Source: Deinococcus radiodurans R1 = ATCC 13939 = DSM 20539
Lineage (GTDB): Bacteria > Deinococcota > Deinococci > Deinococcales > Deinococcaceae
Assembly: GCF_000008565.1 (NCBI RefSeq)
Contig: NC_001264.1
Location: 348,347 to 380,346, forward strand
DNA length: 32,000 nucleotides
Direction of reading: 5' to 3'
Under the pieces are notes generated by a model. That model saw only the letters and a program-made list of their open reading frames with translations, was not told the origin of the DNA and did no database searches. Positions 2,262 to 13,425 of the stretch are shown here, one piece after another. Both the position numbers and the translations under genes were made by a program. Position 1 is the first letter of the stretch, and every line of letters starts with the position of its first letter.

Positions 2262-4226
2262 ATGCGCTTTACTCTTTCCGTCCTGTCCCTGACCTCTGTC
2301 TTGCTGCTCAGTGGATGCGGCCTGCTCAGTACCCCGAGCGATCCCAACGCGCTGACCGTTCAAACGGCCCAGGGCAATGTGAATCTCAGTGGAAAAAACG
2401 TCGTCGTGGTCAGCAAGGACACTCGCTCACCCGAAGGCGCTGCCATTTGGGCCGGCGACCTCAGCAAATTGCAGGGCGGCCCAGCAGACGTGACTTATCT
2501 GCTGCTCCCAGGAGGCGCAACTGCAACTGAGATTCAGGCCCGCGCTGACGAACTGCGCACCGCCGTCACGTCGGCGGGGCTGAGTGGCGTCAATGTGGTC
2601 GTGGCAAGTGCGCCGCCTGCCCCAGATTCGGCGCTCGGCAAATTGCTCGACCAGTGGGGCACGGACCTGCGCGACGTGAAAACGAGCTGGAATGGCGGCA
2701 GCTTGCAAGTCATCGCGCTCGGCGATTCGGGCATCGGCAAAAGCTTTACGGGCACGGTGGCCCTCGATGCTGTTCTGTACGGCAACGATGCCTGCGGTGA
2801 CAAGGCACCTGTCAACGACGTAGCGGGCAAGGCAGCGGTTATCCTGCGCGGCACCTGCGGCTTTACCGACAAGGTCAAGGCCGCTACCAAGCGCGGCGCG
2901 GCGGCAGTTCTGCTCATCAACAACGACAGTCCTCTGGGCGTCATCCGGGGCGCCTGCGACGACACCTGTAAGTCGGCTATCCTCGCCCTACTGCCCAACA
3001 AGGAAGGCACTCAGCTCGTCGGCGCCCTGCAAAGCGGCAAGACGGCGCGGGTGGAAGTGACCAACCTGCGCGTGTTACCCAGCGTCCTGCGTATCTCGCC
3101 CGACGGCACCGCAACCGATACTGGTCCGATTCCCTACGTGTTTAATTCCTACCTCGAAGAGGACGGAGTTAAGCCGGTGGACCCTTTCTCTTCAGTGCGC
3201 AAGGAAGGCGAGTACCTGAGTTGGGAAACGGCACTCAAAACCCGCCTCCAGAACGAGGACAAGAGCGGCAAAGTTACAGTTGTACCCGTCTTCAAGAGCC
3301 AGTTGGCCAAAGACCCCAGCTGGCGCAAAGAAATGATCTACGCCGACGTGACCTTGCCCGCCAACTTTGCGCAGTTCGACACCCTAGAACTTGACCGTGC
3401 CCTGGCCTGCGACGCTGCGCGCAAATCGGCCTGTCCTCCCTGGGACTACGAAACGAACCTCTATATTTGTGATCCTCTCGACCTCACCAAGTGCAATCAG
3501 GAACTTGCCCGTGACATCACGCCCTACTGGAACAGTGGCCGTTGGGTCACCGACATTAGTCCGCTGCTCGCCGTACTGCGCGAAAAGGCGGTGAACGGCA
3601 AGGTGCGCCTCGCTTACTGGACGGTGCAGCCTTACAAGGTGACGATGAATCTGCGCTTCCAGAACAAAGGCAATGCCCTGATTCCCGTCTGGGCCGCGCC
3701 ACTCAAGTTCGGCGGGGCTTTCGGGGACGGGGCTTATAACACCCGGCAGGCCCCAGTAACCTTCGAGCGCCCGGCCTGGGCCAAGAAAGTCGAGTTCTCG
3801 ACGCTGGTCACGGGACACGGCTTCAACGATTCCAAGAGCTGCGCTGAGTTCTGCAATACCGTTCACCACGTCACCGTGAACGGCAACGACTTCACGCTGA
3901 GCAGCCCGGTGACCGACAATCCGCTGGGATGCTTTGAGCAGGTCAAGGATGGAGTGGTACCCAACCAGTCCGGCACCTGGGTCTACGGGCGCAACAACTG
4001 GTGTCCCGGCCAGGGCGTCAAGCTGTGGAACAGCGACCTCAGCGCCGCCGCGACAGGTCCTGGACCTCATACCCTGACTTATAAGGCGCTGGTCGACGGC
4101 CAGGACCACTTATCCAAGCTCGAAGACGGCGCCGAGCGTGACGCCAGCATTCACATGACAAGCTGGCTGGTCTATTACGCCGAGCGTGGCGCGGCTCTGC
4201 CGAGCAAACCGAACGTCAAGCAGTAG
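2262..4226 (+). CDS. Lipoprotein with a protease-associated (PA) domain and a C-terminal peptide-N-glycosidase F (PNGase F)-like domain
   Basis: Lipobox signal MRFTLSVLSLTSVLLLSGC. PA-domain motif GKAAVILRGTCGFTDKVKAATKRGAAAVLLINND. The C-terminal half matches remembered PNGase F blocks: CPPWDYETNLYI (cf. CDEWDRYANVYV), ITPYW, TGHG...CAEFC..VHHV.VNG (cf. CAEWCFRTHTIAINN) and NWCPGQGV (cf. GWCPGMAV). RBS AGGAGG is upstream. Confidence 0.75.
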   Translation: MRFTLSVLSLTSVLLLSGCGLLSTPSDPNALTVQTAQGNVNLSGKNVVVVSKDTRSPEGAAIWAGDLSKLQGGPADVTYLLLPGGATATEIQARADELRTAVTSAGLSGVNVVVASAPPAPDSALGKLLDQWGTDLRDVKTSWNGGSLQVIALGDSGIGKSFTGTVALDAVLYGNDACGDKAPVNDVAGKAAVILRGTCGFTDKVKAATKRGAAAVLLINNDSPLGVIRGACDDTCKSAILALLPNKEGTQLVGALQSGKTARVEVTNLRVLPSVLRISPDGTATDTGPIPYVFNSYLEEDGVKPVDPFSSVRKEGEYLSWETALKTRLQNEDKSGKVTVVPVFKSQLAKDPSWRKEMIYADVTLPANFAQFDTLELDRALACDAARKSACPPWDYETNLYICDPLDLTKCNQELARDITPYWNSGRWVTDISPLLAVLREKAVNGKVRLAYWTVQPYKVTMNLRFQNKGNALIPVWAAPLKFGGAFGDGAYNTRQAPVTFERPAWAKKVEFSTLVTGHGFNDSKSCAEFCNTVHHVTVNGNDFTLSSPVTDNPLGCFEQVKDGVVPNQSGTWVYGRNNWCPGQGVKLWNSDLSAAATGPGPHTLTYKALVDGQDHLSKLEDGAERDASIHMTSWLVYYAERGAALPSKPNVKQ

Positions 4227-4262: not shown

Positions 4263-4290
4263 CTCCCGGCAGAGCGCACCCTGCCGGGAG
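4263..4290 (+). terminator. Perfect 10-bp GC-rich stem-loop after the PNGase-like gene
   Basis: CTCCCGGCAG-AGCGCACC-CTGCCGGGAG lies 37 nt after the stop at 4226. It falls inside the implausible N-terminal extension of the track ORF 4232..5548. Confidence 0.5.
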
Positions 4291-4426: not shown

Positions 4427-5548
4427 TTGACGGCCTACCTCATCTCCGCCGCCACCGCCGTGCCCGGCACCGCTTATCCCCAGACCCTGATTCGTGACCT
4501 GCTTCGGGCGCAGCCGCAAATGGACCGGCTGGCACAGCGGCTCATTCCCAGTGCCTTCAATGCCTCGGGCATCGACACCCGCTACAGCGTAATTCCCGAT
4601 TACCTGGGCGCGGGCGGCCCCTTTTTCGACGCCGTGAGCGGGCAGATGCTCTCGCCGGGCACCGGCCTACGCAACGAGGTCTACACCCGCGAGGTCACGC
4701 CACTGTTTATCGATGCCGGGCGGCGGGCACTGGAGGGCAGCGGACTGGCGCCGGAGGACATCACCCATGTCGTCACGGTGTCGTGCACGGGCTTTTTCGC
4801 GCCCGGCCCCGATTATCTGGTGGTGCGGGCGCTGGGCCTGCCCGCCACGACCCAGCGCTTTCACGTCGGGTTCATGGGCTGCTACGCGGCGTTTCCGGCG
4901 CTGCGGATGGCGCGGGCCTTTTGCGACGCCGACCCGCAAGCCAACGTGCTCGTCATCTGCGCCGAGCTCTGCACCCTGCACGTCAAGGTGTCGCCTGACC
5001 CCGACGATATCGTGTCCAGCGCGGTCTTTGCCGACGGCGCGGCGGCGGTGGTGGTGAGTGCTCAGCCTCCCGTCACGGGTCGGACGGCGCTGCGCTTCGA
5101 CGCCTTCGAGACGGCGCTCACCCCGCCCGACCAGGGCGAAAAGGACATGGCGTGGACGATTGGCGACCAGGGCTACCAGATGGTCTTGAGCAGCTACGTG
5201 CCGCGCCTGATCGAAACCCACCTGCACGGCGCGGTGGGGCCGCTGCTGCACACGCTGCCGGGCGAACTCGCGCAGGCGGGCGAGCACATCGAGCACTGGG
5301 CGGTGCACCCCGGTGGGCGCAGCATTCTGGACAAGGTGGAAGGCAGCCTGGGCCTCAGCGAAACGCAGATGCACGCCTCGCGTGAGGAGCTGAGGCGCTA
5401 CGGCAACATGAGCAGCGCGACGGTGCTGTTTATTCTGCGTGACCTGCTGGAAGAGGTCAGGGACGGCGAACGGGTCTGCGCGATGGCCTTCGGGCCGGGC
5501 CTGACGGTGGAATCGGGGCTGATGACCGCGGTGGGGGCGAGTGAATAG
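4427..5548 (+). CDS. Type III polyketide synthase (chalcone synthase superfamily, bacterial alkylresorcinol/alkylpyrone synthase-like)
   Basis: The Cys-His-Asn triad contexts are VSCTGFFAPGPD, WAVHPGGRSILD and YGNMSSATVLF, with a conserved N-terminus YLISAATAVPG. The start is uncertain. In-frame TTG at 4427 gives 373 aa. The track start at 4232 is also TTG and would add a Pro/Arg/Ser-rich 65-aa extension that runs through a terminator-like hairpin. Confidence 0.88.
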   Translation: MTAYLISAATAVPGTAYPQTLIRDLLRAQPQMDRLAQRLIPSAFNASGIDTRYSVIPDYLGAGGPFFDAVSGQMLSPGTGLRNEVYTREVTPLFIDAGRRALEGSGLAPEDITHVVTVSCTGFFAPGPDYLVVRALGLPATTQRFHVGFMGCYAAFPALRMARAFCDADPQANVLVICAELCTLHVKVSPDPDDIVSSAVFADGAAAVVVSAQPPVTGRTALRFDAFETALTPPDQGEKDMAWTIGDQGYQMVLSSYVPRLIETHLHGAVGPLLHTLPGELAQAGEHIEHWAVHPGGRSILDKVEGSLGLSETQMHASREELRRYGNMSSATVLFILRDLLEEVRDGERVCAMAFGPGLTVESGLMTAVGASE

Positions 5549-6251
5549 GACTTGGCCCGATTTCAGTCGCCGTGAGCAGAACGTCCCGGAGCTGATGGAC
5601 GACCCGGCGTGCGACCTGCGCCAGCTTGAGCGCACCTACGCGCAGTTCGAGCAGGTCAACGCGCTGGTTTCGGGCTGGGAAGTGGTCTACCGGCGCGAGC
5701 TGCGGCCCCGGCTGCGGCGGGACCGGGCCATGACGCTGCTCGACATCGGCTGCGGTGGGGGCGACCTGGCGCGGCAATTGCTTCGCTGGGCGGCGCGGGA
5801 CGGCTTTTCCCTGCGGGTGCTGGGCATCGACGCCGACGAGCGGGCCATTCACTACGCCCAGGCGCAGCCGCCGCGCTCCGGCCTGAGCTTCCGGGCCGCG
5901 CTGAGCGGGGAGCTGCTGCGTGGGGGCGAGCGCTTCGACTTCATCGTTTCCAACCACGTGCTGCACCACCTTACCGACGCCGAGGTGCCGGAGCTGCTGC
6001 GCGACTGCGAGGGTCTGTGCCGGGGCGTCACGCTGCACAGCGACATCGAGCGGCACCCGCTGGCCTACGCGGGCTTTGCGCTGCTCGCCGCGCCGCTGTT
6101 CCGCGACTCGTTCATCCTTTATGACGGCACGCTTTCCGTGCGCCGCAGCTTCCGGGAGGACGAACTGCGGCGCCTTGCCCCGGCGGGCTGGCAGGTCACG
6201 CGGCCCTTTCCGTTCCGGCTGCTGCTGAAACATGAGGCCGGGCGTGCTTGA
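5541..6251 (+). CDS. Class I SAM-dependent methyltransferase
   Basis: SAM-binding motif I is LLDIGCGGGDLARQL. The GTG start overlaps the PKS stop by 8 nt. Length 236 aa. Confidence 0.8.
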   Translation: MNRTWPDFSRREQNVPELMDDPACDLRQLERTYAQFEQVNALVSGWEVVYRRELRPRLRRDRAMTLLDIGCGGGDLARQLLRWAARDGFSLRVLGIDADERAIHYAQAQPPRSGLSFRAALSGELLRGGERFDFIVSNHVLHHLTDAEVPELLRDCEGLCRGVTLHSDIERHPLAYAGFALLAAPLFRDSFILYDGTLSVRRSFREDELRRLAPAGWQVTRPFPFRLLLKHEAGRA

Positions 6252-7386
6252 CGTGCTGGTGGTGGGCGGCGGGCCGGTGGGGACATTTCTGGGAGCGCTG
6301 CTGGCAAAAAGCGGCCTGAGCGTGCAGGTCTGCGAGCGGCGCACGGCACCCTGGGAACATTCCCGCGCCATCGGGCTTCACCCACCGGCTCTGCGGGCGT
6401 TCGAGTCCATCGGCCTGACCCCGGCCATCGTGGAGGCCGCCGTCAAAATCCGGCGCGGGCTGGTCATCGGGGAGACGGGCGTGCTCGGCGAACTGCCGAT
6501 GACCGGGGCGGGACGGGATTACCCGTTCATCCTGGCGCTGCCGCAGGTGGAAACCGAGCGGCGGCTCTGGGAGCGCCTGGACGACCTCGCCCCGGACGCC
6601 CTGCGGCGCGGCTGCGAGGTGCGCGAGGTGCGTGACCTGGGAGGCCACTGCGAGGTCACGGTCACCCAGGACGGACGCGAGGAGCGCCTGAGTGCCCGCT
6701 TCGTCGTGGCGGCGGACGGCTGGCGCTCGGCGGTGCGGACGGCGGCGGGAATCGGGTTTCACGGCGGCCCCTACCCCGACCCCTACCTGATGGGCGATTT
6801 TCCCGACACCACACCCTTCGGCGACGACGCTGTGGTGTTCATCAAGCCGGGCGGCGTGGTGGAATGTTTTCCGCTGCCGGGCCGCCTGCGACGCTGGGTG
6901 GTGCATCTCGGTCAAGCTCTGGCTGACCCGCTGCCTGAGGACCTCACCCGCATCATCCGCGAGCGCACCGGCCTGCCGGTTCCGACCTCCGAATGCCGGA
7001 TGCTCAGCGCCTTCGGGGTGCAGCGCTTTCAAGCGGCGCGAATGTGGCAGGGCCGGCTGCTGCTCGTCGGCGACGCCGCGCATGTGGTCAGCCCCATCGG
7101 CGGGCAGGGCATGACGCTCGGGTGGCTGGACGCCCTGGCCCTCGCGCCGCTGCTCACGCGGGCGTGCCGGGGAGACACCGTGACTGACCGCGACTGGCAC
7201 GCCTTCGAGCGCCGCCGCCTGCGGTCCAGTGCGCTCGCCAGCCGGCAGGCCGAGCTGAACATGGCGGCGGGGCGCCCGGCCCGGGGTGGGCTGACCCAGC
7301 CGCTGCGCGAGGCGCTGCTCGCCGGCCTGCTGAAGTCGCCCGCACAACCGCTGCTCGCCGCAACATTCACCATGCGCTGGCTGTGA
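6232..7386 (+). CDS. FAD-dependent aromatic-ring monooxygenase (class A flavoprotein hydroxylase, UbiH/PHBH-like)
   Basis: N-terminal dinucleotide fold VLVVGGGPVGTFLGALLAKSG. The DG motif ADGWRS and the GD motif LLLVGDAAHVVSPIGGQGM are present. It overlaps the methyltransferase gene by 20 nt. Confidence 0.85.
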   Translation: MRPGVLDVLVVGGGPVGTFLGALLAKSGLSVQVCERRTAPWEHSRAIGLHPPALRAFESIGLTPAIVEAAVKIRRGLVIGETGVLGELPMTGAGRDYPFILALPQVETERRLWERLDDLAPDALRRGCEVREVRDLGGHCEVTVTQDGREERLSARFVVAADGWRSAVRTAAGIGFHGGPYPDPYLMGDFPDTTPFGDDAVVFIKPGGVVECFPLPGRLRRWVVHLGQALADPLPEDLTRIIRERTGLPVPTSECRMLSAFGVQRFQAARMWQGRLLLVGDAAHVVSPIGGQGMTLGWLDALALAPLLTRACRGDTVTDRDWHAFERRRLRSSALASRQAELNMAAGRPARGGLTQPLREALLAGLLKSPAQPLLAATFTMRWL

Positions 7387-7399
7387 GAAAGTCATCCTG

Positions 7400-8656
7400 A
7401 TGCGCATCCTCATCGCCTCGCAGCCCATCGCCGGACACGTGTTGCCGCTCCGGGAAATCGCCCGCGAACTCGCCCGGCGCGGCCACGAGCTGCGCTGGTA
7501 CACCGGGCGCAAGTTCCGGCCCCAGGTCGAAGCGGCAGGCGCCGTGTGGGAGGGCTTCGTCCACGCCCGCGACTACGACGACGCGAATTTCGACGCCGCC
7601 TTCCCTGGCCGCAGTGCCCGGCGCGGGCTGGCGCAACTGCTGTTCGACCTGCGGCACGTCTTCGTGGGGCAGATGGAAGGGCAGTTTTACGACCTGCGCG
7701 ACCTCGAGCGGCGCTGGCGACCCGACGTGGTGCTGGCCGACCAGACGGTGGGCGCGGCGCTGCTGCGCGAGGAACTCGGCGGCCCGCCGGTGGCGCTGCT
7801 CGGCGTGTTGCCGCTGGGGATTGCCAGCCGGGACACCGCGCCTTTCGGGCTGGGCCTCGCGCCGCTGGGGGGGGCTGCCGGTCAACTCAGGAACAGGGCT
7901 TTACAAGTGCTGACTGAGCGAGTCGTGTTCCGGGGCATCTCCGCGCAGCTCGCCGACCTTTGCACGTGGCTGGGACTGCCGGCTCGTTCTTTTGCGCCGC
8001 CCGTCGCCCCCTCGCTGATGCTGCAACCGAGCGTGCCGCGCCTGGAATACCTCCGGCGTGACCTGCCGCCGCAGGTGCGCTTCATTGGACCGCTGGTGCT
8101 GCCCGCTGGCGAGTTCACGCCGCCCGCGTGGTGGAACGACATTCTGACTGCTGAGCGGCCCGTGGTCCTCGTCACGCAGGGCACGCTGGCGACCCGGCCT
8201 GAGCAACTGCTGCGCCCAGCCCTGGCCGCGCTGGCCGACGAGGACGTGCTGGTGGTGGCGGCGGGCGTGGCCCCTGAGCGCCTCGGCCCGCTGCCTGCCA
8301 ATGCGCGTGCGGCGGCGTTCGTCCCCTTCACGGCGCTGCTGCCGCACGTCGCGGTGTCCCTCACCAACGGCGGGTATGGCGGCACCGTGCAGGCGCTGAG
8401 CCACGGCGTGCCGTGCGTGGTGGCGGGCCGCAGTGAGGACAAGGCCGAGGTCGCGGCGCGGGTGGCGTACAGCGGCGCGGGCCTGAACCTGGGCACGGCC
8501 ACGCCTTCACCTGCCCGAATTCGTGCGGCGGTGCGGCGGGTGCTGCGCGAACCGGCCTTCCGCGAGCAGGCGGGCGAGCTGGGGCACGAGCTGCGGCAGC
8601 ACGACGCGCCGCGTGAGGCGGCAGACTGGCTCGAAACCCTGGGAGGAAAGAAATGA
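7400..8656 (+). CDS. GT1-family (MGT/UDP-glycosyltransferase-like) glycosyltransferase
   Basis: The N-terminus MRILIASQPIAGHVLPLREIARELARRGHEL and the C-terminal nucleotide-sugar binding block TNGGYGGTVQALSHGVPCVVAGRSEDKAEVAARV are typical of macrolide/sterol-type GT1 enzymes. Confidence 0.8.
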   Translation: MRILIASQPIAGHVLPLREIARELARRGHELRWYTGRKFRPQVEAAGAVWEGFVHARDYDDANFDAAFPGRSARRGLAQLLFDLRHVFVGQMEGQFYDLRDLERRWRPDVVLADQTVGAALLREELGGPPVALLGVLPLGIASRDTAPFGLGLAPLGGAAGQLRNRALQVLTERVVFRGISAQLADLCTWLGLPARSFAPPVAPSLMLQPSVPRLEYLRRDLPPQVRFIGPLVLPAGEFTPPAWWNDILTAERPVVLVTQGTLATRPEQLLRPALAALADEDVLVVAAGVAPERLGPLPANARAAAFVPFTALLPHVAVSLTNGGYGGTVQALSHGVPCVVAGRSEDKAEVAARVAYSGAGLNLGTATPSPARIRAAVRRVLREPAFREQAGELGHELRQHDAPREAADWLETLGGKK

Positions 8657-10139
8657 AAAGGCGCCTGCTGCTCGCCCTGGCCCTGTGCCTGACCCCGGGG
8701 AGCGCCCATGCGCAGGGCTTTCGCGTCCTTGGCCTCAACGTCCTGCCCGGGTCGCTGCCGCCCGCCGACCTGAACGTGCTCGACGGGCTGGGCACGGCGT
8801 CCTGCCCACCGCCGGCTGGCCGCCTCGACCGGCTGCTCTCCCAGGAATTGCAGGGGCAAGGGGCCAACCTGAGCTGCGGCAACCGCTTTGAGGCGCTCAT
8901 CGAATTTCCCGGCCCTGCCGCCGCGCACCCCTGGGGCAGCTACGCCGAGCTCGCCCGCCGCATTCAGGAGGCGAAAAGCAGTGTCCTGCTGGCGAACATG
9001 GTGTGGGACGAGGGCCAGGGCGCACCGGGCCAGCTTATCGCTGCCGCGCTGGCCGACTTGCGCCGCAATGTCCTGGCCCACCCCGAACAGTACCCGCAGG
9101 GCATGAGCGTGCGCGTGCTGCTCGGCAACTCGGTGCGGCCTGACCGCCCGGCAGATCCCCGCGCCAATCTGGATTACGCGGTCAAAGACCTCCTCGGCGC
9201 GGGACTCGACCTCAGCGGTCAGGCAGAGGGCGGCTGGCGGCTGGACGTGGCGAACTTCAGCTACGCCGCGCCGCACAGCCACCTCAAACTGCTGGTGCTC
9301 GACGGTGAGGAGGTCGTGGCGGGGGGCTACAACATCAGCACCCTGCACCTGTCACCAGAAGCAGGGGGCAAGGGCCTGCGCGACCTCGGGCTGGTGGTGC
9401 GCGGCCCCATCGCCCGCAACGCGGTGGCTGCGTTCTACGACACCTGGCAACTGAGCGAGCGCCTGACCTGCCCAGCGGGCACGCGCCCCGGCACCGCCCT
9501 GAGCGTGCGCCGGGCCTGTCCGCTGGGCGGCGAGAGTGCGCCCTTCACGTTGCTGTGGCCGCCCGCCGCGCCCGCCGGCACCGCCAACGTCTATTCGCTC
9601 TACCGCCGCAGCGGCGTGACGGCTGCCGACCACGCCCTCACCGCGCTGCTGGGGGCGGCGAAGACCTCCATCGACCTGCTGCAAACCCAGGTCAGCGGCG
9701 ACCTCAGTTGCGACCTCACGCTGGGCACGCCGCAGGGCTGCGACCTCGCCACGCACGGCTTCCGGCGTGGCAGGCCGTGGCCGACGCGCTGCGCCGGGGA
9801 GTCCACGTGCGGCTGGTGCTCGATCAGGCCTATCCGATGAAGTTCGAGGCCGCCGCCCTGGTCCGCAGCCTGCAAGACGCGCTGGCGGGAACCGGGGCCG
9901 CAGACCGGCTGGAAGTGCGCTGGGCCGGGCACCCGATGCACACCAAAGCCATCGTGGTGGACGGAGAAATGGCGGTCTTCGGCAGCACCAACCTGCATTT
10001 TTCCTCGTTCGGGCCGGCGGGACTGAGCGAATACACGCTGGCGACGAGTGACGCCGGGGCCATTGCCCGGATGCAAGACATCTTCGAGGGGGAGTGGAAG
10101 ATGGCCCGGCCTTTCACTTTTCCCTGGTGGGCACGGTGA
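8653..10139 (+). pseudogene. Secreted phospholipase D / cardiolipin synthase-superfamily protein with two HKD motifs; the frame is broken by an apparent 1-nt deletion near 9750-9765
   Basis: Signal peptide MKRRLLLALALCLTPGSAHA. HKD-1 is HSHLKLLVLDGEEVVAGGYNIS, in the 8653 frame. HKD-2 is HPMHTKAIVVDGEMAVFGSTNL, preceded by WQAVADALRRGVHVRLVLD, in the 9555 frame. The two halves join naturally around ...DLATHG / PAWQAV.... The ATGA overlap with the GT gene indicates coupling. Confidence 0.75.
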
Positions 10140-10183: not shown

Positions 10184-10376
10184 CTAGAGCAGTTCTCCGA
10201 ATGACGCGTGCGTCGGCAGCGGCGCCGCTGGCCGCTCCATTCTCTCCTGAGGAGCTGTACCAGTCTGCTTCGCAGCTTTGCAAGTCCGTCCTGCTCAACG
10301 TTTTGCACTCGCTCTCTGCGAGCTGTACCAGTCCGCTCGCCAAAAAGCTGTGCCATCTTTTTGTCAAATGCTCTAG
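10184..10376 (+). repeat. Small non-coding repeat (SNR/MITE-like), copy 2, the longest copy
   Basis: It runs from CTAGAGCAGTTCTCCGAATGACGCGTGCGTCGG to GCTGTGCCATCTTTTTGTCAAATGCTCTAG. It aligns along its length with copy 3 but carries an extra internal segment of about 22-30 nt. Confidence 0.85.
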
Positions 10377-10462
10377 TAAATCCGCGTGAGGCCCCGGCTC
10401 ATGGCCGCTTTGTCCCGGCACCTATACTTGCCCACAGAAATTGCACGCAAGGAGCGCTGAAT

Positions 10463-11845
10463 ATGCTAGAGGCCAAGCTGAAACCCCACCGTGAATACCT
10501 GCTGGCGCAGTCCGCCGGCCAGAAACTCTTTCTGACCCTGACCGTGAAGCCCACCGCCGAGGCGCGGCAGGCGCGGCCCGACCTGAGCGTGGTGTTCGTG
10601 GTGGACACCTCCGGCTCCATGCGCGAGGTCGTGACCGAACCCACCGAGCGCACCGGGCGCACGACGCAGGTGGACGGTCAGGTCTACGAAGTCGTCAAGG
10701 GCGGCAAAAACAAGATGCAGCTGATGATCGAGGCGCTGCGCGGCATCGTGACCTCCACCCTGATTCGGCCGGGCGACCGCCTCGCGCTGGTCAAGTTCGA
10801 CGACACCGCCGAGGTCCTTGTCCCATTCATCACCGCCAGCAATCAGGCGCAGCTCGCCGCCGCCGTGGACAAGCTCGACTGGTACTCGGGCGGCACCCAC
10901 ATGGGCGCGGGAATGCGCGCCGGGGCCGGCCTGCTCACGGGCGAGCGCGGCAGCCGCCGCATGGTGCTGATCAGCGACGGGCAGACCTTCGACGCGCCGC
11001 TGGTGGAAGACCAGATCGGCGCCCTGGCAGGGCTGCAAGTGCCCGTGACGGTGGTGGCCGTGGGCGACGAGGTGAACGCCGACCTGCTCACCGCCATCGC
11101 CGACCGCACGCAGGGGCAGCCGCTCGACATCGTGCCCGACACGCAAAATCCGCAGCCGCCCGCCATCCGCGCTTCCGAGTTGCCTGCCGCGCTGCTCGGC
11201 GACCTGCAAAAAGCCGCCGCCGAAGTGGTCACGGGCGTGGCCCTCTCGGTCCGCACCGTCAAAGACGTGGTCCTCGAGCGCGTCACCCGCGTGCAGCCCA
11301 CCCAGACCGAGGTGGCGCTGCGGGCCGACGGGCCTCTCCCGCTCGGCAACGTGGACGCGGGCAGCGGGGCGACCTTCGTGCTGGAGTTCACCCTGCCTGC
11401 CCGCCCGGCGACCAAGATGCGGCTCGCGCAGCTCGGCCTGACCTACGAGGTGCCCGGCGCGAACTACCGGGGCGAGATTCCCCCGCTCGACGTGGTGGTG
11501 GAATTTACCGGCGAGGAAGCCCTGGCCGCCCGGATAGACCCCGAGGTCATGGGCTGGGTGCAGCAGCGCAACATCGAGGGGCTGGTCGCGCAGGCCACCC
11601 GCGAGGCGAACCAGAACCCCGAACAGGCGGCCAAGACGCTTGAGCAGGCCCGCGCCATGACCCAGCGCCTCGGCAACGGCGCCATGACGCAGGCACTCGA
11701 CCGCGCCATCGGCGAACTCGGCAGCTCCAAGACCATCAGCCTCGGCACCGCCAAGACGCTCAAAATCGGCGCCAAGACCCAGACCCTCAGCAGCGACGCC
11801 GCCCTGCCGTCCGATGAGGACATCCGCCGCATGACCGGAGCCTGA
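10463..11845 (+). CDS. Cytoplasmic von Willebrand factor A (vWA) domain protein with intact MIDAS, plus a C-terminal beta-rich and helical extension
   Basis: MIDAS elements are VVDTSGSM, GGTHMG and LISDGQ. No signal peptide or TM segment is visible. The ATG at 10463 is preceded by AAGGAG. The longer track ORF start at 10208 lies inside the repeat. Confidence 0.85.
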   Translation: MLEAKLKPHREYLLAQSAGQKLFLTLTVKPTAEARQARPDLSVVFVVDTSGSMREVVTEPTERTGRTTQVDGQVYEVVKGGKNKMQLMIEALRGIVTSTLIRPGDRLALVKFDDTAEVLVPFITASNQAQLAAAVDKLDWYSGGTHMGAGMRAGAGLLTGERGSRRMVLISDGQTFDAPLVEDQIGALAGLQVPVTVVAVGDEVNADLLTAIADRTQGQPLDIVPDTQNPQPPAIRASELPAALLGDLQKAAAEVVTGVALSVRTVKDVVLERVTRVQPTQTEVALRADGPLPLGNVDAGSGATFVLEFTLPARPATKMRLAQLGLTYEVPGANYRGEIPPLDVVVEFTGEEALAARIDPEVMGWVQQRNIEGLVAQATREANQNPEQAAKTLEQARAMTQRLGNGAMTQALDRAIGELGSSKTISLGTAKTLKIGAKTQTLSSDAALPSDEDIRRMTGA

Positions 11846-11850
11846 AGCGG

Positions 11851-13425
11851 GTGACGGCCCCCCAGACCTGTCCTTTTTGCGGTTCGCCCGCCGCGCCGAC
11901 CGATACGGTGTGCCATGTCTGCGGCGCGGCGCTGGGCCGGGGCGGGGCCACCGCGCTGCTCACGCTGCCGCCCGGCACCACGTTGCAGGGCGGGCAGTAC
12001 GTGCTCGACCGGGTGCTCGGGCAGGGCGGCTTCGGCATCACCTACGACGCCCGCGACACCCGGCTGGGGATGCGGGTCGCCGTCAAGGAACTGTTCGTGG
12101 ACGGGTCCACCCGGCGCGGCCTGAACGTGATTCCGCCGCTCAGCCAGGGCGCGGAGGTGTTCGCGGCCACCCGGCGCGGCTTTCTGGAAGAGGCGCAGGT
12201 GCTCGCCCGCTTTGGCGACCCCAGCATCGTGCGGGTGCTCAATTACTTTGAGGAGAACGGCACCGCGTACCTCGTCATGGAGTTTCTGGAAGGCGAAACG
12301 CTCGGCGAGGCCATTCAGAAGCGGGGGCCGCTCCCGCCGCTCATCGCCGCGCAGGTGGCCGACTCGGTGGCGCACGCGCTCGAGGTCGTGCACGCCGCCG
12401 GGCTGCTCCACCGCGACATCAAGCCCGACAATATTTTTCTGCACCACTCGGGCCGCATCATTTTGATTGACTTCGGCTCGGTGCGCGCCTTCGACAGCGG
12501 CAAGACGGTGGCGCATACCCGGCTGGTCACGCCCGGCTACGCGCCGCTGGAGCAGTACAGCAGCGCCGCCAAGTTCGGGCCGTACACCGACCTCTACGCG
12601 CTCGGGGCGACCCTGTTTCACGCCCTGACCGGCCAGATGCCGCCCGCCGCTACCGACCTCTCGCTCGGCACGCCGCTGCCGCCGCTGCCCCCCGGAACCC
12701 CGCCCAACCTGCGTGAAGCGGTGCTGAGCTGCATGGCGCCGCGCATCGAAAACCGGCCTCAGAGTGCTCAGGCCCTGCGGCGGATTCTGCGCGGAGAGGG
12801 AACGGTGACGGTCACGGCGGCGCCCGCCGCTGCGCCGGCTCCACAGCCCCAATCTCAGCCGGTGCGTCCAAGTCCAGCGCCTACTCCGACTCCGATGCCC
12901 AACCCGCAAACGGACCGGGAGGTGGAAAAACGGCTCCGGGAGCTGGAAAAAGAAGTCCGCAAGGAGGCGCGGAGGCAGTCCCGGCGCCCTGCACCGGCAC
13001 CCGCTCCCATTCCCATCCCTGCGCCAGCGCCCCAGCGCCCTGCGCCCCCTCCCACCCCCTTTCCTGGCCCCAGGCGCCCCGCCGCGCCCCGTGACGGAAC
13101 GCTGGGGCGGCGGCTGGTCGTGGTCGCCATCACTGTGCTCAGCGCCTTGAGTGGCGGCATACTCATGGCGCAGACGCCGGCCTGGCAAATCATTTCTCCA
13201 CCTGAACTCAGTGTGATGGCGGGCGCCGGGATCGGAGCCCTCGCCGGGCTGGCGCTCGGGCAGTTGCTGTGGTGGGCGTTGCCGGTGGCGCTGCCCATCT
13301 TCGCGGCGGCGATTACCTCCAGCGTATGTCAAAACCTTGGCTATAGGCCGCCCACTGTGATTGCCGCGAGCGTCGCCGCTATCGTGGTCTCGCTCATTCT
13401 GATGCGGCTGATTCGGCGCATCTAG
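11851..13425 (+). CDS. Hanks-type Ser/Thr protein kinase with an N-terminal zinc ribbon, a Pro-rich/charged linker and a C-terminal multi-TM region
   Basis: Zinc ribbon CPFCGSPAAPTDTVCHVCG. Kinase motifs GQGGFG, VAVKEL, HRDIKPDN, DFGS and TPGYAPLEQ. The hydrophobic C-terminus has about 4 helices. GTG start. The stop TAG (13423-13425) lies within the first bases of repeat copy 3. Confidence 0.9.
   Translation: MTAPQTCPFCGSPAAPTDTVCHVCGAALGRGGATALLTLPPGTTLQGGQYVLDRVLGQGGFGITYDARDTRLGMRVAVKELFVDGSTRRGLNVIPPLSQGAEVFAATRRGFLEEAQVLARFGDPSIVRVLNYFEENGTAYLVMEFLEGETLGEAIQKRGPLPPLIAAQVADSVAHALEVVHAAGLLHRDIKPDNIFLHHSGRIILIDFGSVRAFDSGKTVAHTRLVTPGYAPLEQYSSAAKFGPYTDLYALGATLFHALTGQMPPAATDLSLGTPLPPLPPGTPPNLREAVLSCMAPRIENRPQSAQALRRILRGEGTVTVTAAPAAAPAPQPQSQPVRPSPAPTPTPMPNPQTDREVEKRLRELEKEVRKEARRQSRRPAPAPAPIPIPAPAPQRPAPPPTPFPGPRRPAAPRDGTLGRRLVVVAITVLSALSGGILMAQTPAWQIISPPELSVMAGAGIGALAGLALGQLLWWALPVALPIFAAAITSSVCQNLGYRPPTVIAASVAAIVVSLILMRLIRRI

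Follow-up and report, generated by a model that had tools for sequence, protein, structure and literature searches.

A window of 32,000 nucleotides (nt) from the genome of Deinococcus radiodurans R1 (contig NC_001264.1, positions 348,347–380,346) was analyzed with respect to a gene group at positions 4427–10139; coordinates given below without a locus label refer to this window. According to open reading frame (ORF) mapping, the group consists of five co-oriented genes on the plus strand encoding, in this order, a type III polyketide synthase (PKS), an S-adenosylmethionine (SAM)-dependent methyltransferase (MT), an FAD-dependent monooxygenase (FMO), a glycosyltransferase (GT), and a secreted enzyme of the phospholipase D (PLD) superfamily (Table 1). 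The set probably directs the synthesis of a glycosylated phenolic lipid. The same five genes are called by RefSeq in another D. radiodurans assembly, where they carry generic names. Since an identical PKS protein is encoded on contigs of ~412 kb in several D. radiodurans assemblies, the operon can be placed on chromosome II. No publication characterizing it was found in the literature searched (locus tags, alkylresorcinol, T3PKS, chalcone synthase).

Table 1. Genes of the operon and associated features (positions in the 32,000-nt window)
Feature	Position	Strand	Remarks
Type III PKS	4427-5548	+	373 aa, TTG start; PF00195 and PF02797
Class I SAM methyltransferase (MT)	5541-6251	+	236 aa, GTG start; PRK06202 family
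Class A FAD-dependent aromatic monooxygenase (FMO)	6232-7386	+	384 aa from ATG 6232; PF01494
GT1 glycosyltransferase (MGT / EryCIII-like)	7400-8656	+	418 aa; PF06722 and PF00201
Secreted two-HKD PLD-superfamily enzyme	8653-10139	+	here ORFs 8653-9840 and 9555-10139 in different frames; PLDc_2
One-C deletion site (GGCC to GGC), PLD frameshift	9758-9760	+	alignment to other assemblies
Perfect 10-bp inverted repeat, 8-nt loop	4263-4290		separates the operon from the upstream gene, which stops at 4226; no T-run

An earlier interpretation made from the DNA letters and their translations (hereafter, the sequence-only reading) had proposed a single translationally coupled operon, and both the five co-oriented genes and all four junctions were recovered as it described them. 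The PKS and MT genes overlap by 8 nt, the MT and FMO genes by 20 nt if ATG 6232 is taken as the FMO start (8 nt with the RefSeq start at 6244, which shortens the protein from 384 to 380 aa), the FMO and GT genes are separated by 13 nt, and the GT and PLD genes share an ATGA overlap. The five enzyme classes that it named were also right, every domain assignment being above the curated Pfam/NCBIfam cut-offs. The arrangement is far beyond chance, as gene order is kept across genera and all five genes evolve with ratios of nonsynonymous to synonymous substitution rates (dN/dS) of 0.12–0.22. In the comparison with the closest relative, a metagenome-assembled genome (MAG) designated bin8, dN/dS was 0.17 for the PLD gene and 0.12–0.22 for the other four. 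Scans of the region for promoters, terminators, and Rfam families gave nothing over background. A D. radiodurans-like metagenome contig (L004, ERZ926304) carries a 333-nt deletion in the FMO gene (window ~6881–7213) that reduces the product to 269 aa; the other four operon genes are intact in it.

In the window, the PLD gene is interrupted by a frameshift, which the sequence-only reading had implied by speaking of a "repaired PLD". One C is missing at ~9759, where the window has cacggcttccgg versus cacggccttccgg in four other D. radiodurans assemblies; with this C the gene is intact in all four and encodes 495 aa. The missing C is the sole internal difference over 15.5 kb from assembly GCA_041878445.1 (locus L001). 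Loci L002 and L003 each show several other single-base insertions or deletions (indels) relative to the window, e.g., at 11858 and 12688. The frameshift is thus particular to this assembly and reflects either an error in sequencing or a lesion of the strain. Because its dN/dS is like that of the other four genes, the PLD gene is regarded as maintained and not decayed.

The first protein of the operon matches both domains of the chalcone/stilbene synthase superfamily (Chal_sti_synt_N, 96.9 bits; Chal_sti_synt_C, 80.9 bits; cut-off 27). Its catalytic triad, which had been described as intact, was located by alignment to PKS18 and Steely1 as Cys152 (GFMGC), His294 (HPGG), and Asn327 (GNMSS), and these residues are invariant in 15 PKS orthologues. 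Among solved type III PKSs in the PDB, the best scores were 125–148 bits, and the top positions belonged to the long-chain-acyl users Ectocarpus PKS1, Steely1, and PKS18. Streptomyces type III PKSs retrieved from plasmid records are 28–34% identical to the Deinococcus enzyme and sit in RppA-type (cupin and P450), DpgA-type (enoyl-CoA hydratases), or MMPL-linked clusters. From these comparisons, the D. radiodurans PKS is predicted to synthesize long-chain alkylresorcinols (or alkylpyrones). Genes for a dedicated FAAL or ACP are absent from the cluster. A gene for a 4HBT/hotdog thioesterase lies directly upstream of the PKS gene in D. radiophilus (L090 3953–4378) and D. proteolyticus (L096 6483–6893) and is absent from the D. 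radiodurans locus.

Many orthologues of this PKS are named "naringenin-chalcone synthase" in databases, and the chalcone synthase (CHS) of Deinococcus sp. 43 was assigned to a flavonoid pathway by annotation (PMC10386165), so that a true chalcone synthase producing flavonoids could be considered. This assignment appears extremely unlikely for the enzyme studied here. No 4CL, PAL/TAL, or CHI gene occurs in or near the operon, plant CHS structures score below the long-chain-acyl enzymes, and the closest tested relatives make alkylresorcinols (PMC10896814). Moreover, the MT and FMO partners are typical of phenolic-lipid cassettes, and fusions between PKS and MT exist.

The distribution of the first three genes was assessed with a PKS alignment, one genome per species being retained, which yielded 80 loci with PKS identities of 51–83%. 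Orthologues of MT and FMO follow the PKS gene on the same strand in 72 of them. Three of the eight exceptions are Sinomonas loci without MT, and the remaining five lack FMO, two of them ending at a contig end (L010, L038). The trio occurs in Deinococcus, in many Micrococcaceae and Microbacteriaceae (Actinomycetota), and in one Acidobacteria MAG; the actinomycetotal carriers include Arthrobacter, Cryobacterium, Leifsonia, and Kocuria. According to all-versus-all ORF clustering, the trio has no further neighbors conserved beyond genus level. In addition, an exhaustive MT search returned 141 representative proteins at E ≤ 1e-30, and metagenomic fusion proteins of the types PKS-MT (P0186, P0266), MT-FMO (P0151, P0204), and FMO-MT (P0281) were found. 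The natural fusions of PKS, MT, and FMO therefore indicate that the three enzymes act in one pathway.

The MT matches Methyltransf_25/23/11 and reaches 334.5 bits with the NCBIfam model PRK06202 (NF004851; cut-off 243); it gave no match to the ICMT or PEMT models of Pfam/NCBIfam. The FMO matches FAD_binding_3 with 168 bits, together with the NCBIfam models PRK08244, rifampin monooxygenase, and those of UbiH type. Among solved structures, it is closest to rifampin monooxygenase, PgaE, PnpA, and other aromatic hydroxylases of this kind.

The trio was compared with two known kinds of alkylresorcinol cassettes. The srsABC operon of Streptomyces griseus reportedly yields alkylresorcinol methyl ethers and alkylquinones (work attributed to Funabashi et al., 2008). 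The resemblance extends to the gene order PKS, MT, flavoprotein hydroxylase and to the pathway logic, by which a membrane phenolic lipid would be predicted. However, SrsB is a membrane enzyme of the isoprenylcysteine carboxyl methyltransferase (ICMT) family (PMC6669644), whereas the Deinococcus MT is an unrelated soluble class I enzyme with a Rossmann fold. Given this description of SrsB in the literature and the PRK06202-type MT found here, the operon is not srsABC; the term "srsABC-like" used in the sequence-only reading holds for gene order and logic and fails for the methyltransferase.

The second kind is hidABC, which encodes a SAM-dependent MT, an FAD-dependent oxidoreductase (FDO), and a type III PKS, makes hierridins in picocyanobacteria, and is widespread in Planctomycetota (PMC10896814, PMC8086630, PMC6836626). 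The order hidC-hidA-hidB, i.e., PKS, MT, oxidoreductase, occurs in cyanobacteria (PMC8086630). Genes of Gimesia maris and Rhodopirellula expressed in Corynebacterium glutamicum gave C15/C17 alkylresorcinols and their methylated forms, the Hid-like PKS making the former and the MT adding one methyl group (PMC10896814). The Deinococcus PKS is 36–41% identical to the Gimesia/Rhodopirellula genes by tblastn, sequences damaged by optical character recognition (OCR) and frameshifted; the MT, too, could be matched to them in this way. A clean planctomycetal MT-FDO-PKS operon was recovered from a Paludisphaera plasmid; over the readable stretches of the OCR-fragmented Gimesia/Rhodopirellula sequences, its MT and FDO are ~44–59% and its PKS ~38–52% identical to the tested genes. 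In comparison with Paludisphaera, the Deinococcus PKS is 40% (E 2.5e-70), the MT 27% (full length), and the flavoenzyme 26% (E 2e-7) identical.

Two other trios gave a similar picture. A Roseomonas plasmid carries PKS, MT, and FMO in the Deinococcus order, with 39% identity for the PKS and 32% for the MT; the flavoenzyme of Roseomonas gave no pairwise match with the Deinococcus FMO. In Psychrobacter, the PKS falls within the range of 38–40% identity and the MT is 29% identical over ~170 aa. PRK06202 is the top NCBIfam model for the partner MTs of Arthrobacter (295 bits), Paludisphaera (232), Roseomonas (136), and Psychrobacter (107). With the same top model and full-length identities of 27–32% to the Paludisphaera and Roseomonas enzymes, the Deinococcus MT corresponds to a HidA-like soluble SAM-dependent partner. 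Such a correspondence does not extend to HidB, as the Paludisphaera and Roseomonas flavoenzymes best match geranylgeranyl-reductase/QhpG models, whereas the Deinococcus FMO is a classical aromatic hydroxylase.

The Deinococcus trio and hidABC have in common a cassette of three genes for a type III PKS, a soluble class I SAM-dependent MT of the PRK06202-type family, and a flavoenzyme. The Deinococcus PKS is nearer to the Hid-like PKS of Paludisphaera than to any PDB enzyme, yet the identities found here (26–40%) remain below the 48–55% between cyanobacterial and planctomycetal versions within the Hid family, and the characterized Hid clusters described in PMC10896814, PMC8086630, and PMC6836626 carry neither GT nor PLD. 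As judged by sequence relationships, the trio is a putative separate, uncharacterized branch of alkylresorcinol-type cassettes, with an MT lineage and probably also a PKS lineage shared with Hid, an order and logic shared with Srs, and a hydroxylase of another subfamily.

As for the fourth gene, the GT exceeds the cut-offs of PF06722 (84 bits; cut-off 31.7) and PF00201 (39.7 bits; cut-off 19.5), and scores 127 bits with the TIGR01426 MGT model, under its cut-off of 260. The nearest solved relatives are CalG4, CalG1, Kcn28, and OleI, natural-product GT1 enzymes acting on aromatic polyketides or macrolides. Orthologues with 57–77% identity are present in at least 20 Deinococcus species, and in no fewer than 11 lineages of the genus a GT gene comes after the trio. 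The GT gene directly follows FMO in D. radiodurans, the bin8 MAG, D. saxicola, D. marmoris, and two more MAGs, as well as in D. metallilatus, D. radiotolerans, AJ005, and D7000. In D. radiophilus (L090 7534–8004, CP086381), a 156-aa gene without a Pfam match lies between intact FMO and intact PLD genes. It represents the N-terminal third of a GT: residues 1–102 of its product match the D. radiodurans GT at 55% identity, and the sequence after them is unrelated. In D. aquatilis (L016 13079–14563) and Deinococcus sp. QL22 (L109 11061–12539), the position directly after FMO is occupied by a gene for a serine hydrolase of ~490 aa with a beta-lactamase-family domain. This is of note since the phenolic lipids of the Srs pathway have a link to resistance against beta-lactams in Streptomyces.

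In two species, the GT gene is accompanied by genes for rhamnose synthesis. The D. metallilatus operon (L089 4783–8004, CP038510) contains rmlB-rmlA-rmlC-rmlD between the GT and PLD genes, with overlapping stops and starts, and D. aquatilis has a divergent GT-rmlB-rmlA-rmlC-rmlD unit, with GT as the first gene, at a distance of 2.5 kb from the PKS-MT-FMO genes. The association of orthologous GTs with rmlBACD in these two species makes a dTDP-6-deoxyhexose such as rhamnose the probable sugar donor. In eight genomes, genes for a PF18927 (CrtO-type) acyltransferase and a MacB/FtsX (DevC-like) permease adjoin the GT gene. The PF18927 membrane protein and the MacB_PCD/FtsX permease are encoded at L089 9506–11187, L094 8457–10153, L011 14406–16109, L097 12376–14079, and L106 8254–9995; the pair recurs beside GT and in one case beside PLD, even where the PKS gene is not adjacent (D. 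metalli). It may represent an acylation and export module for the glycolipid. No such CrtO-like/FtsX pair is found within the D. radiodurans window.

Glycosylated alkylresorcinols have been described previously, namely, the bartolosides and glycosylated monoalkylresorcinols of heterotrophic bacteria (PMC6836626). The bartoloside (brt) clusters of Synechocystis salina combine a resorcinolic lipid core with xylose/rhamnose GTs and a DevBCA exporter (PMC6836626). The Deinococcus loci resemble them in that the GT pairs with rml genes and a MacB/FtsX permease, DevBCA being an exporter of MacB type. In contrast, the bartoloside core is made by a DarAB-type ketosynthase/aromatase and not by a type III PKS, the brt clusters have no MT or FMO tailoring and no PLD, and the permease is lacking in the D. 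radiodurans window. Comparative genomics gives good support to the extension of the trio by the GT, for which an analogue is known. The sequence-only reading had proposed that a GT1 enzyme could glycosylate the product; gene neighborhood does tie the GT to the pathway, and the novelty it attached to such a lipid is lost, since bartolosides make glycosylated alkylresorcinols an already known compound class.

The last gene of the operon encodes a protein with two stretches matching PLDc_2 and a signal peptide (MKRRLLLALALCLTPGSAHA|QG). In an alignment of 29 homologues, the HxKx4D motifs H210-K212-D217 and H430-K432-D437 are invariant, five cysteines are invariant and one more is nearly so (≥90%), and an N-terminal hydrophobic signal sequence is kept in every homologue. 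The family comprises 29 clusters in a search of 5.8 billion proteins, and every cluster with a named source comes from Deinococcus. A PDB sequence search with the PLD produced a weak match to 7E0M alone, and cardiolipin-synthase models remained far under their cut-offs. The AlphaFold2 model (pLDDT 90.3, pTM 0.91) has its best fold matches, nearly full length, among secreted Streptomyces PLDs (e.g., 1F0I and 2ZE4; E ~1e-21, TM ~0.6), followed at lower rank by significant matches to PLD3/4 exonucleases and vaccinia F13. Secreted Streptomyces PLDs are known for transphosphatidylation. The Deinococcus protein shares with them a length of ~500 aa, a Sec signal peptide, two HKD motifs per chain, and the predicted fold; it differs by an identity of 16–18% and by a family restricted to Deinococcus in the search made.

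The gene order PKS-MT-FMO-GT-PLD is present in D. radiodurans and the bin8 MAG, and in D. radiotolerans with a 211-nt gap before PLD. The PLD gene also belongs to the cluster in D. metallilatus, with the inserted rmlBACD genes, and in D. radiophilus, with the decayed GT; in these two species and D. radiodurans, i.e., in three architectures, its start codon lies within the end of the gene before it. Linkage to the cluster is also probable in two more lineages, since PKS and PLD (in one of them also GT) were found on identically sized contigs. In a neighbor-joining tree rooted at the midpoint, the PLDs linked to the cluster are located on the same side of the root, and the linkage lies within one Deinococcus subclade. 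The 156-aa D. radiophilus protein was considered as a PLD partner akin to the 144–156-aa proteins encoded after PLD in D. deserti, D. aetherius, and D. metalli; it is unrelated to them and represents the GT remnant described above.

Taken together, these data are best accommodated by a pathway in which the five-gene operon makes a methylated, hydroxylated, and then glycosylated alkylresorcinol-type lipid, with the PLD acting outside the cytoplasm; we assign this reading a probability of roughly 55%. The type III PKS would take a fatty-acyl thioester from primary metabolism and extend it with malonyl-CoA to a 5-alkylresorcinol or, less likely, an alkylpyrone. Hydroxylation of the ring by the FMO and methylation by the PRK06202-type MT would give a lipid of the methoxy-alkyl-hydroquinone or quinone type, as in Srs/Hid. 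The methylated and hydroxylated phenolic lipid that had been proposed from the letters is the best-supported part, considering the relatedness of PKS and MT to alkylresorcinol cassettes and the conserved trio. The gene neighborhood suggests that the cytoplasmic GT1 enzyme could then glycosylate a remaining phenolic hydroxyl to give a phenolic glycolipid comparable to the bartolosides. In the weakest step of the scheme, the exported, disulfide-rich PLD may act on an envelope phosphodiester outside the cytoplasm, either by transphosphatidylation from a membrane phospholipid onto the glycolipid, or by remodelling of the phospholipid around the glycolipid.

Several observations weigh against such a five-gene pathway. 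The trio occurs without GT or PLD in all Actinomycetota, D. proteolyticus, D. psychrotolerans, and QL22; the GT/CrtO-like/FtsX module of D. metalli lies away from the PKS gene; and the GT homologues of Actinomycetota (49–53% identity) are orphans not located beside a PKS gene. In D. deserti, D. aetherius, and D. metalli, the PLD gene lies in a conserved housekeeping region, and on two metagenomic contigs it sits beside siderophore transport genes and beside the PF18927 acyltransferase gene only, respectively. As the linked PLDs fall on one side of the tree, the linkage may go back to a single ancestral event and have been retained since. Its extracytoplasmic location sets the PLD apart from the remaining four enzymes of the cytoplasm. 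Because the flavoenzymes are not orthologous, as indicated by the low identity and the different top families, neither the sequence of tailoring steps nor their regiochemistry would be transferable from Hid.

Many of these observations could be explained if the pathway consisted of the trio alone, its product, a methylated alkylresorcinol or alkylquinone, possibly serving as a membrane lipid or alternative electron carrier, and if GT and PLD were co-transcribed passengers. In that case, the GT would act together with the CrtO-like acyltransferase and the MacB permease on a different glycolipid or a carotenoid, and the PLD would be a secreted phospholipase or phosphodiesterase of general function. 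The naming of PF18927 after the staphyloxanthin glycosyl-carotenoid acyltransferase agrees with this, as do the conservation of the trio as a unit outside a Deinococcus subset, the joint location of GT, PF18927 acyltransferase, and FtsX genes apart from the PKS gene in D. metalli, the solitary PLD orthologues in housekeeping contexts, and the orphan GT homologues of Actinomycetota. Polyketide quinones are alternative electron carriers in mycobacteria and Streptomyces (PMC9927152, PMC5916927), which provides a precedent. However, the GT gene follows FMO on the same strand at a distance of 13–80 nt in at least 10 lineages whose core genes are only ~60% identical, the rml genes of D. metallilatus lie inside the operon between GT and PLD, the PLD start-stop overlaps are kept in three architectures, and the D. 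radiodurans window is devoid of the CrtO-like/FtsX pair. A pathway of three enzymes with two passengers is accordingly possible, if somewhat doubtful.

The sequence-only reading had tentatively placed the PLD in the pathway, and this part is supported in the one Deinococcus subclade with cluster linkage and finds no support in the unrelated contexts elsewhere. Membership of the PLD in the pathway is plausible, with a reaction that can be suggested from its fold and location. In the most specific version, the PLD would be a dedicated tailoring enzyme at the outer face of the cytoplasmic membrane that transfers a phosphatidyl group from a membrane glycerophospholipid to the glycosylated alkylresorcinol or hydroquinone, giving a phosphatidyl-glycosyl phenolic lipid; this seems unlikely. 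We know of no other PLD-superfamily tailoring enzyme in such a cluster, and the enzyme would be the first if the proposal is true.

The GT and PLD might instead make the Deinococcus phosphoglycolipids, i.e., phosphatidyl-glyceroyl-alkylamine glycosides, the PLD serving as the phosphatidyl transferase and the GT adding the sugar. To our knowledge, the biosynthesis of these lipids has not been resolved; the known ones carry Gal, Glc, or GlcNAc. Such a lipid would require a transphosphatidylase of the PLD/Cls type as well as a glycosyltransferase, and the PLD family was found only in Deinococcus. On the other hand, the GT travels with rhamnose (rml) genes, the PLD is secreted, the operon has no gene to supply glyceroyl-alkylamine, several Deinococcus species have no GT and/or PLD gene beside the PKS gene, and D. 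radiophilus has kept PLD without a functional GT. The scaffold in question, N-(((GlcNAc-)acyl2Gro)P-2)GroA)alkylamine, is also produced by Thermus thermophilus (PMC3398001), yet no PLD homologue was found in Thermus at E ≤ 1e-5 and none outside Deinococcus. With the scaffold shared by Thermus and the PLD homologues confined to Deinococcus, the link to phosphoglycolipids, also raised in the sequence-only reading, is disfavored and appears very unlikely.

The surroundings of the operon contain several other features. The inverted repeat at 4263–4290 may be a terminator or a boundary element. The upstream gene (2262–4226) encodes a 654-aa lipoprotein with an LSGC lipobox, a PA domain, and N- and C-terminal domains of peptide-N-glycosidase F (PNGase F). 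Enzymes of this type are unusual in bacteria outside Bacteroidota. No homologue of the lipoprotein was found in the flanks of the loci examined in other species. Downstream, from window 10208–11845 onward (L001 16038–21122), a signalling module comprises genes for a VWA-domain protein, a Ser/Thr kinase, a protein with an FHA domain, and a phosphatase of the PP2C type. Several assemblies differ in how they split the kinase, FHA, or PP2C genes, which suggests further indel errors. The 324-nt intergenic region that extends from the PLD stop to the start assigned to the VWA gene by RefSeq contains two copies of an 18-nt direct repeat, GAGCTGTACCAGTC(T/C)GCT, at 10252–10269 and 10320–10337, 68 nt apart. 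It may be a small non-coding repeat of D. radiodurans or an operator pair.

Studied as a model of stress resistance, D. radiodurans has envelope lipids that are unusual and only partly explained genetically. The operon predicts a PKS-derived, redox-active phenolic glycolipid. The core cassette and the glycosylation are of known kinds, and the secreted PLD is the unusual, unexplained element. If the PLD belongs to the pathway and transfers a phosphatidyl group, the product would represent a class of phosphatidyl-glycosyl phenolic lipids not described so far, formed via an extracytoplasmic, nucleotide-independent step; if it does not, the locus is an ordinary, uncharacterized member of a known biosynthetic family. 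The trio, present in dozens of Deinococcus and Actinomycetota genomes, constitutes a large, experimentally untouched branch of alkylresorcinol cassettes, and its accessory genes, namely, those for the GT, the rml enzymes, the MacB/DevC-like permease, the PF18927 acyltransferase, and the secreted PLD, offer a comparative framework for the diversification of phenolic lipids.

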